Assembly (NCBI GenBank): GCA_048938445.1
Contig: JBHLME010000022.1
Location: forward strand, 1 to 43,522
DNA from: Promethearchaeota archaeon
GTDB taxonomy: Archaea > Asgardarchaeota > Lokiarchaeia > Sigyniarchaeales > SOKP01
Reading direction: 5' to 3'
Length of the DNA: 43,522 nt
The notes below the pieces were generated by a model that saw nothing but the letters and a program-made list of their open reading frames with translations, searched no databases and was not told the origin of the DNA. The translations under genes and the position numbers were made by a program. Below are positions 1 through 1,986 of this stretch, piece after piece (the first letter of the stretch is position 1; the number at the start of each line of letters is the position of its first letter).

Positions 1-24
1 GGGCTGAGAAGGTGTTTAGATTTT

Positions 25-345
25 TTAATCCTTTATCATTATATTATCTTCTGAAAACCCTTCTTCAATTAATAGTTGTTTTAATTTAAAGCGATGATCT
101 CCCATTAATTCTACTTCATTACCTCTAATTGTACCTCCTGAGGCAACTTTTCTTTTTGCTTTTTTTAAGAAATCCTGCAAATTCTCACTAAACGCTCCTT
201 CAAATTTAATGAGGGTAACCGTTTTACCCCATTTTCTTTTATCAAGATAAATGGTTATTTGAAGTTCATCAAGAAAAAGACCATCACAGACGCATAACTC
301 TTTTGGGTTGCTACACTTTGGACAAATTTCAGTATTATTATTAAT
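25..345 (-). CDS. sui1: Translation initiation factor aIF1 (SUI1/eIF1 family), probable AUU start
   Basis: Not in the ORF track. My translation is (I)NNNTEICPKCSNPKELCVCDG...ITIYLDKRKWGKTVTLIKFEG...KRKVASGGTIRGNEVELMGDHRFKLKQLLIEEGFSEDNIMIKD*, i.e. the archaeal SUI1 N-terminal Cys cluster plus the GGT and GDHR motifs. There is no in-frame ATG/GTG/TTG between the upstream in-frame TAA and the Cys cluster. Confidence 0.93.
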   Translation of the reverse strand: MNNNTEICPKCSNPKELCVCDGLFLDELQITIYLDKRKWGKTVTLIKFEGAFSENLQDFLKKAKRKVASGGTIRGNEVELMGDHRFKLKQLLIEEGFSEDNIMIKD

Positions 346-525
346 AAGTTTTATTCCCGTATTTTTTAATTATTAATATATTATACTTTCTCAAATCAAT
401 ATAAATAACTTTCTCATAAAAACCTTAGCTATTCTTCATGAGTATTAAATCATTCAAATTGGGATAATAATGATAATTAATACAATGATTTAAAGAAAAT
501 TGTGATAATATCTAGATTTTTAATA

Positions 526-1986
526 TTATATTTTATCAGAATTGTCCCAAAAAACGGGATATTTTTCTTTTTTTAAATTATAAATTCTAGTTCGCATTTT
601 TAGAGCCGAGACCGCTTGAACAGATTCTTTTATACTATGAAATACGGGAATATTCGAGAGTTCCAAAGCTTCAATGATTAAACCATACTTTTTGATATAT
701 GGAATAAAGCATATTATTGGTTTTTTTTCTTGAGAAGTAACATTAGCAATTCTCCTCCCTATTTGAAATGAGATTGAAGGGGTATAGGGAAGAATGAGTA
801 GGATAATGCATTCAATGCGCTCGATTTTTGAAAGATATCGTATAATATTTTCAATATCTTCATCTTGGGCTGAACCCGTGAGATCAATTGGGTCATTAAA
901 TGAAGCTATAGGACGGGCAACTGGATTGACTAACTCTTTCATATCTTTTTGTTCTTTTTCAGTAAATTTTACAGAACTTAATCCATACTTTTTAAGAAGA
1001 TCCGCACATATAACACCATGCCCCCCTGAAATAGAAAGAATTGCTACTTTACCATAAATTACTTTATTATCTCCAAAGGGTTTCAACTTATGACTTAATA
1101 TATCATATAATTTTAAATATGTAAGTAATAAATTTTCTGAACTTGGTTGTATTACTAAATTTTGTTTTAAAGCACCAGCTAACACTTTATTATTCGCAGA
1201 TAAACTAGCAGTATGAGATTTAGTTGCTTCTTTTCCTGCATCTGTAATCCCACCAAAAAAAGCAACCACGAGATCATCTGATTCTCTTGCAACTTTTAAA
1301 AAATCTCTCGCTCTATTATCTTTAAAACCTTCAAGATAGAATGCAATATTTTTTGTTTCTTTATCCTGTTTACTAAAGTATTTTAAAAGCATTGTTTCAT
1401 CAACTACAGCACGATTTCCTATGGAAACAGCTGTTGAGACTCCAATATTAATTTCTTTAAACTTGTGGAAAAATTGATCGACAAGCACACCTCCAGACTG
1501 ACTTATAAGCGCCACGGATCCTTTTGGTGGACGAGTTATTCGTTCTGTAGGCATGAAAATCGTATCCAATAGTGGTGGAGAATATATTCCAATACAATTG
1601 GGACCTAATACAGCAATATCATTATCCAATGAAATTTTTTCTAGCTTTTCTTGGCGTTTAATACCTTCATTTCCTATTTCTGCAAAACCACCACTGATGA
1701 TTATGCAAGCCGGAATGTTTAGATCAGCACATTGACTGACATACTGCAAGGTTGCTTCAGCAGGAATTGCAATAACTAAAAGATCTGGAATTTCTGGTAA
1801 TTCATCTAATCGCTTATATAGTGTTACTCCATCGACTTCACCCCCTTCAGGATGAATACCATACACTTTTACGTTCATTTCAAATTCATTTTTTACAAAA
1901 ACAATTCTGCCCGGACTTGTAGGATTCCTTTTGCTTATCCCTACTACAGCCATCGATTTTGGTTTAAATAACTTTTCTAGATTCAT
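526..1986 (-). CDS. Acyl-CoA synthetase (NDP-forming) alpha-type subunit
   Basis: CoA-binding start LFKPKSMAVVGIS, LGPNCIG, ISQSGG, SIGNR, YLEG and phospho-His motif SHTASL. No ATP-grasp domain. Confidence 0.88.
   Translation of the reverse strand: MNLEKLFKPKSMAVVGISKRNPTSPGRIVFVKNEFEMNVKVYGIHPEGGEVDGVTLYKRLDELPEIPDLLVIAIPAEATLQYVSQCADLNIPACIIISGGFAEIGNEGIKRQEKLEKISLDNDIAVLGPNCIGIYSPPLLDTIFMPTERITRPPKGSVALISQSGGVLVDQFFHKFKEINIGVSTAVSIGNRAVVDETMLLKYFSKQDKETKNIAFYLEGFKDNRARDFLKVARESDDLVVAFFGGITDAGKEATKSHTASLSANNKVLAGALKQNLVIQPSSENLLLTYLKLYDILSHKLKPFGDNKVIYGKVAILSISGGHGVICADLLKKYGLSSVKFTEKEQKDMKELVNPVARPIASFNDPIDLTGSAQDEDIENIIRYLSKIERIECIILLILPYTPSISFQIGRRIANVTSQEKKPIICFIPYIKKYGLIIEALELSNIPVFHSIKESVQAVSALKMRTRIYNLKKEKYPVFWDNSDKI

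Follow-up and report, generated by a model that had tools for sequence, protein, structure and literature searches.

In bacteria, the infC gene, which encodes initiation factor IF3, autoregulates through an AUU start codon. The archaeal aIF1 gene described here resembles infC in being a fidelity-factor gene with a conserved AUU placed behind a Shine-Dalgarno (SD) motif and with a product reported to discriminate against AUU, and the feedback proposed for it would follow identical logic. The two systems differ in that IF3 and aIF1 are described as unrelated in fold (PMC4705826) and in that the aIF1 codon varies by lineage (AUU, AUC, AUA, CUG), with some lineages keeping AUG, and its feedback is only proposed. 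In eukaryotes, eIF1 is described as autoregulating by means of an AUG in a poor context (Ivanov et al. 2010, cited in PMC6237735 and PMC4705826). eIF1 and aIF1 are homologous, sharing the SUI1 domain, and in both the gene's own initiation site is suboptimal and conserved, but eukaryotes keep AUG and weaken its context within a scanning system, whereas the Asgard aIF1 codon is non-AUG and is placed by an SD motif. Within the archaea, the Asgard group is regarded as the one most closely related to eukaryotes (PMC12993045).

For archaeal aIF1 itself, the 30S:aIF1A:aIF2:Met-tRNAi complex of S. solfataricus is described as binding model mRNAs with AUG as well as those with AUU without aIF1, but those with AUG alone when aIF1 is present (PMC4705826), and a role in start-codon fidelity is given for aIF1 of P. 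abyssi (PMC6237735). In H. volcanii, ribosome profiling assigned about 30% of putative alternative initiation sites to near-cognate codons, in a study whose main text does not contain the term aIF1 (PMC7261190). The full-text literature searched, subscription journals lying outside its scope, yielded no account of archaeal aIF1 being autoregulated or having a non-canonical start, and none was found by term look-up in the reviews PMC7531240, PMC6412873, PMC4705826 and PMC8211752.

The features of the aIF1/SUI1 gene found near one end of the whole stretch of DNA analyzed here (43,522 nucleotides, hereafter the window) are collected in Table 1. The minus-strand frame is intact, being open from 369 to the TAA at 27-25, and the 106-aa product matched Pfam SUI1 (PF01253) over residues 29-97 with an E value of 7.8e-15 and 55.5 bits (cut-off 25.5), the genome-level Pfam-model search giving 55.8 bits. 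The solved aIF1 chain 4mo0_A was matched with an E value of 2.6e-24 (query residues 6-104, chain residues 3-101), and the product belongs to the same protein family, with the same architecture, as the aIF1 of M. jannaschii and P. abyssi (PDB 4mo0, 5jb3, 5jbh). Its N-terminal CxxC...CxC cluster, ICPKCSNPKELCVC, aligns with ICPRCGLPKELCVC of 4mo0 and is presumably a zinc-binding zinc knuckle. Two differences were seen: the solved chain begins two residues before EICP where the window product, counted from AUU, begins five before, and the solved chain reads LQGDH where the window product reads LMGDH. The latter substitution had been pointed out in the preliminary description as a departure from the usual motif; it is real but not notable, the residue at this position being Q in 110, M in 7 and R in 7 of 124 Asgard aIF1 sequences. 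The YciH-type model NCBIfam NF002096 scored 97.7 bits, below its threshold of 98; that label is bacterial, and the gene was not filed under YciH. The dN/dS between the window copy and its ortholog in the related genome G002 was 0.126, indicating that the gene is under purifying selection. The upstream neighbor on the same strand encodes an ADP-forming acyl-CoA synthetase-like protein.

Table 1. Positions of the aIF1 gene, its candidate start codons and neighboring features in the window.
Feature	Position	Strand	Remarks
aIF1/SUI1 coding sequence	25..345	minus	from ATT-345 to stop TAA 27-25; 106 codons plus stop
TTG, first canonical in-frame codon	178..180	minus	inside the SUI1 domain; would give a 51-aa fragment
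Out-of-frame 17-codon ORF from TTG-394	341..394	minus	stop TAA (343-341) overlaps ATT-345 by one base
ATT, most likely initiation codon (AUU)	343..345	minus	ATT at the homologous position in 57/68 f1 loci
ATA, minor alternative near-cognate start	352..354	minus	TTA in L124, L125 and L250, hence not conserved
GGGA, weak Shine-Dalgarno-like motif 9 nt before ATT-345	355..358	minus	enrichment and spacing
ACG, alternative near-cognate start	358..360	minus	ATG in L125; ACG in L124/L250; not conserved in L251/L252
In-frame TAA closing the frame upstream	370..372	minus	read from the sequence
Conserved upstream block CTAAGGTTTTTATGAGAAAGTTATTTATATTGATTTGA	391..428	minus	near-identical in L124 and L125, flanks diverge
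CoA-binding / Succ_CoA_lig protein, same-strand upstream neighbor	526..1986	minus	486 aa, ATG start

The 5' end of the frame reads, on the minus strand, TAA(372-370) TTA AAA AAT ACG(360-358) GGA ATA(354-352) AAA CTT ATT(345-343), followed by AAT AAT AAT ACT GAA ATT TGT CCA AAG TGT. The preliminary description had stated that an intact SUI1 gene here lacks any ATG, GTG or TTG ahead of its Cys cluster, and reading of the frame bore this out, with no canonical codon before the mid-domain TTG-180. As the upstream stop lies 9 codons before ATT, ACG-360 and ATA-354 are open too, and every start candidate in the window (AUU, ACG, ATA) is a near-cognate, non-canonical codon; the candidate N-termini are M-NNNTEICPK and M-GIKLINNNTEICPK. 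ATT-345, 9 nt after GGGA, was also supported as the likely start: the spacing was verified, and ATT is conserved across the taxonomic family of the window genome (f1), which makes it the most likely start. The 16S rRNA was not found in the genome itself and the anti-SD was taken from relatives, in which the 16S rRNA 3' end is GGATCACCTCCT; the window GGGA is a poor match to it. Motifs enriched upstream of starts in the genome were GGTG, GTGA, GAGG, GGAG and GGGA, the last of these 5.2-fold with spacers mostly of 6-9 nt, while the GTGA spacers peak at 6-7 nt with 9 nt also common.

Non-canonical initiation at ACG-360 (or ATA-354), with a product 5 (or 3) residues longer, has to be weighed against AUU, and we regard it as unlikely. 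The relative L125 (71% identical) has ATG exactly at the place of the window ACG-360, which weakens the case for AUU as the exact start codon of the window copy; the 13 nt before the ACG/ATG position are identical in the window copy (L001), L124 and L125, and ACG and ATT are not separated by an in-frame stop in the window. However, whereas ATT is retained in all six sequences of the window sub-clade (L001, L124, L250, L125, L251 and L252), the ACG-360 position holds ACG in three and ATG in L125, and the next relatives, the metagenome sequences L251 (71% identity) and L252 (65%), have neither; these two keep ATT TCA GAC GAT... with a stop 6-7 codons upstream. Moreover, it is the window ATT, not ACG, that aligns with the family-wide ATT at an equal 9-nt spacing from the purine motif, L125 has a C-terminal frameshift and may be a damaged copy, and ATA-354 reads TTA in three relatives. 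Of the two alternative codons that had been proposed, ACG is thus kept open by the ATG of L125 and ATA is reduced to a minor candidate. For the window copy, AUU-345 is probably the start, ACG-360 is an appreciable but distinctly less likely choice, and what small likelihood is left falls to ATA-354 or another codon. We infer that AUU rather than ACG is used, with Met-tRNAi initiating there. In the public MAG record of L125, the frame breaks after KKAKKK and the C-terminus is truncated, by a frameshift error or in a decaying copy.

Further upstream, the 38-nt block at 391-428 includes a TATA-like TTATTTAT centered near 404 and is either a BRE/TATA-like promoter or an 8-codon uORF (ATG-417 to TGA-391). 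Read as a uORF it gives MRKLFI[L/M]I, with few and mostly synonymous substitutions among three sequences. By the usual distance between TATA element and transcript start in archaea, the transcript would start near 378, giving a leader of 33 nt before AUU. In the main ortholog group of f1, a conserved TCTATTATTTTTT is found at a distance similar to that of the window's TATA-like element. No conserved RNA structure was detected in the leader, the alifold consensus for 19 group-A loci being empty.

The comparison was extended to aIF1 matches, which were obtained from 36 of 41 genomes of relatives, from 102 of 121 at the family level and from 272 of 301 at the phylum level. In f1, 68 distinct aIF1 loci were read at their 5' ends, and in 54 of these the stretch from the upstream stop to the Cys cluster contains no in-frame ATG, GTG or TTG. 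GTG is present in the remaining 14: in 13 of them it precedes the Cys cluster by 10-11 codons and lies within the SD-like motif or right next to it, and in one (L061) it precedes the cluster by 8 codons. Of the codons at the homologous start position, 57 are ATT, 3 ATC and 7 ATA, L061 not being placeable. A non-AUG codon, noted beforehand for the window alone, is conserved when the 5' ends of the f1 aIF1 loci are aligned. ATT makes up 84% at the start position and 47% elsewhere in the same f1 genes, where the Ile codons ATT/ATC/ATA are used at 47/16/37%; this excess of ATT is modest and, as related genomes are not independent, lends weak support only. In 50 of 67 loci the AT[TCA] codon follows an in-frame stop at a distance of 1-3 codons, AT[TCA] is the only near-cognate or canonical codon on offer in 35 of 67, and GTGA, GGGA or AGGA is found 8-10 nt before it in 60 of 67, at exactly 9 nt in 49. 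The usual f1 form is AAAGGTTGTGA-N9-ATT AAA GAC GAC GAx ATT TGT, and in a second f1 paralog group ATT or ATA is preceded at 8 nt by a perfect GAGGTGA. Upstream of ATT, stops and no coding pattern are seen in f1, and downstream of it the variation is of the coding type, at third positions. Taken together, the alignments indicate that the lack of a canonical aIF1 start is conserved throughout the family and not peculiar to one genome. The GTGA-to-ATT distance in f1 (9 nt) exceeds the 6-7 nt mode of the window genome, and in family f26 (L221-L238), which has an ATG start, the GAGGT-to-start distance is nevertheless about 12 nt; aIF1 genes may thus have, in their long SD spacing, a second feature of weak context.

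Across the phylum, 174 Asgard aIF1 loci were classified, of which 81 have no canonical start, 47 ATG, 38 GTG and 8 TTG; outside f1, 27 of 106 loci lack a canonical start. This count omits the duplicates L190, L191, L219 and L220, L124 and L250 (repeat or near-repeat of the G002 sequence), the fragments L003, L123 and L248, and the distant matches L126 and L253; also left out were L251 and L252, metagenome relatives with no family label, which were read separately. The 5' part of L123 (G106:C1:1384716-1385667) reads as N and is unclassifiable. In families f20, f14 and f7, AGGAGG or AGGAGA is followed at 8-9 nt by ATA where other families have ATG, and genus g17 of f2 has ATA CCA AAA where its relatives have TTG CCA AAA. 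In f19 (L239-L249), ATA or ATT precedes the conserved F-D-D-E in most loci; five of ten loci have no canonical codon, and three more have ATG two codons upstream, only 3 nt after the GAGGT motif. In f12 (L189-L218), CTG (14/30) and GTG (16/30) occupy the same position behind AGGAG, with ATG in none of the 30 loci, and most of the CTG loci have an in-frame stop one codon before CTG. All 18 loci of f26 have ATG. That separate lineages differ in the codon and, slightly, in its position points to repeated independent loss of a strong aIF1 start, and the several Asgard families with plain ATG indicate that aIF1 does not require a weak one. In L031 (G030) and L077 (G034), both of g17, a -1-frame ATG or TTG is followed by a run of six A; the ATA and A run of g17 could reflect either ATA initiation or slippage on the A run.

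Two other initiation factor genes from the same 41 genomes served as controls. For aIF1A and for aIF2-beta alike, 30 of 30 loci open with a canonical codon at the conserved N-terminus, ATG by our count in 27 of 30 for each; specificity rests on these two genes. By this comparison, the non-canonical start is specific to aIF1. A genome-wide scan for long open stretches before the first canonical start was dominated by antisense and low-complexity frames and was too noisy to estimate rarity. It may be mentioned that long frames in the genome, for example C5:11338-13197, C73:873-2024 and C78:6892-8229 (all minus-strand), run stop to stop over 619, 383 and 445 codons with the first ATG, GTG or TTG 103-155 codons in, and are possibly further non-canonical-start genes or just long open leaders.

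In the mechanism that we propose, the AUU at 345-343 would initiate aIF1 synthesis, positioned by the weak SD-like GGGA 9 nt upstream, and aIF1 would destabilize initiation complexes on non-AUG codons. With such a weak start on its own mRNA, aIF1 would be made in smaller amounts when plentiful and in larger amounts when in short supply, which would be a negative feedback like those of infC (AUU) and eIF1 (poor AUG context). Autoregulation of aIF1 in the manner of IF3 and eIF1 is plausible because reviews report that aIF1 rejects AUU in vitro, and on that basis rising aIF1 would be expected to reduce the use of an AUU, AUA or CUG start on its mRNA. This inference draws on the recurrence of the trait, its specificity against the two control genes and the published in vitro discrimination against AUU. 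That Asgard archaea regulate aIF1 abundance through near-cognate starts (AUU, AUA, AUC, CUG) of several independent origins is put forward tentatively, at slightly less than even confidence.

Weak start codons lower expression in general, and the weak start might accordingly do nothing more than set a low constitutive level of aIF1, or of an extra paralog, independent of the aIF1 concentration. The use of GTG, TTG or ATG for aIF1 in some families would fit with this. Low expression could, however, be obtained by a change in promoter or SD motif, yet it is the start codon that has been changed repeatedly, in aIF1 and not in aIF1A or aIF2-beta. In addition, the product of the gene is reported to discriminate against exactly such codons, so that some dependence on its own concentration is hard to avoid, and a purely constitutive role appears improbable.

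The region just upstream of the AUU also bears on how this codon might be reached. An out-of-frame uORF with a canonical start and a stop overlapping ATT is present in 44 of 74 f1-type loci, usually starting at a GTG inside GGTTGTGA and 5 codons long, the window having a 17-codon one from TTG-394; termination-reinitiation could therefore contribute. Translation starting at a canonical codon in another frame, with reinitiation at AUUAA or a +1 frameshift into the aIF1 frame, is nonetheless very improbable as the general route. The -1-frame ATG or TTG before the A6 run in g17 would be in line with it, as would the history of S. solfataricus P2 aIF1, which was formerly annotated as interrupted by a -1 frameshift; resequencing is said to have found that gene full-length, possible sequencing error being the interpretation of the review, and peptides from both readings are reported (PMC8211752). 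Both are aIF1 genes that look non-standard at the annotation level, but the window frame is intact and only its start codon is non-canonical. On the other side, 30 of the 74 f1-type loci have no such uORF, among them L004, L125, L251 and L252, which are nearest to the window copy, and the ATC-start loci: L004 and L125 have no canonical start in the frame of the TTG-394 ORF, and L251 and L252 have no overlapping stop. The uORF GTG has almost no space for an SD motif of its own, the last sense codon of the uORF varies (TAT/CAT/AAT), unlike known shift sites, and reinitiation would use AUU all the same. As a general mechanism, a +1 frameshift at the uORF stop was rejected, since the codon in the P site is not constant and the stop is missing from the ATC loci. 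TGA read-through after an in-frame TTG (AGG TTG TGA) was likewise rejected, further in-frame stops (TGA TAA, TGA..TAG) lying before ATT in many loci.

The preliminary description had held that the case would fall if ATG were found at 345-343 in reads or close relatives, or if the gene were untranslated and an intact ATG-started paralog existed elsewhere. In an independent metagenome from a different study, a contig (run X9, record 7) spanning window 278-373 at a low depth of 2.6 keeps ATT and the upstream sequence, with a 3-nt deletion in the AAT run as its sole difference; among the metagenome runs only X9 covered the start region, X2 giving no match and X3 and X8 not covering 300-400. A search of sequencing runs found none of RNA that contains the locus. 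The deletion, in the region of window 333, removes one of the three AAT codons in-frame, which is consistent with a coding stretch. None of the close relatives shows ATG at this position, and the ortholog in G002, 77% identical, has the same TAA TTA AAA AAT ACG GGA ... CTT ATT layout. In the whole 4.6-Mb bin, a Pfam-model search together with a protein search recovered two SUI1 genes only, the window copy and C131:1047-1352 on the plus strand (locus L002), which is 61% identical to the window copy and whose 5' end, TAG CCT ATT AAA GAC GAC GAC ATT TGT, is without a canonical start as well. Contig C131 carries the genome's single aIF2-beta gene, and linkage of aIF1 with aIF2-beta is also found on single contigs of G005, G006, G010, G018 and G024; the sole aIF2-beta and the synteny with relatives show that C131 belongs to the organism and is not contamination. 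A quick maximum-likelihood tree, with SH-aLRT supports, placed the C131 copy in the main ortholog group of f1 and the window copy with its G002 ortholog in a long-branched sub-clade inside f1. The relatives G018, G053 and G083, each estimated as 100% complete, have a single aIF1 match of the ATT type. An assembly or sequencing error, or a pseudogene replaced by an ATG-started copy, might be suspected from a metagenome bin with 8.2% estimated contamination and a gene at a contig end, but such an origin is of negligible likelihood and is excluded by the conservation evidence, given the identical ATT in the independent metagenome contig, in G002 and in three further public records, the dN/dS of 0.126, the absence of an ATG-started SUI1 gene from the genome and the single, ATT-type aIF1 of the complete relatives G018, G053 and G083. 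As a side observation, C129:1-90 is a copy, but for two mismatches, of window 1-92, where the aIF1 3' end and the adjoining bases lie; contig C129 runs on downstream of the gene, and the overlap probably reflects a break in the assembly or variation between strains.

The explanation that we favor, with slightly better than even confidence as a whole, is that the window gene encodes a functional aIF1 (SUI1), one of two paralogs in the genome, that would be initiated at a near-cognate codon, and that the AUU start is an inherited and selected trait, with AUA, CUG or AUU having been put in place independently in other Asgard families. The protein family is an ordinary one; a conserved and recurrent near-cognate start with the feedback that it implies would be the archaeal counterpart of the infC and eIF1 loops. 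For gene annotation, callers that accept only ATG, GTG and TTG truncate or miss aIF1 in such genomes, yielding here the 51-aa fragment from TTG-180. These starts would also be natural evidence for archaeal initiation at AUU, AUA and CUG on an essential gene. In bacteria (IF3) and eukaryotes (eIF1), a fidelity factor is tuned by its own start site, of a kind that the factor itself disfavors, and a conserved, recurrent non-canonical aIF1 start among the archaea nearest to eukaryotes would close the archaeal gap and offer a directly testable system. If this is true, a self-limiting fidelity factor acting through a poor start site operates in all three domains, and the eIF1 loop of eukaryotes may be derived from an archaeal loop or be a repetition of it.
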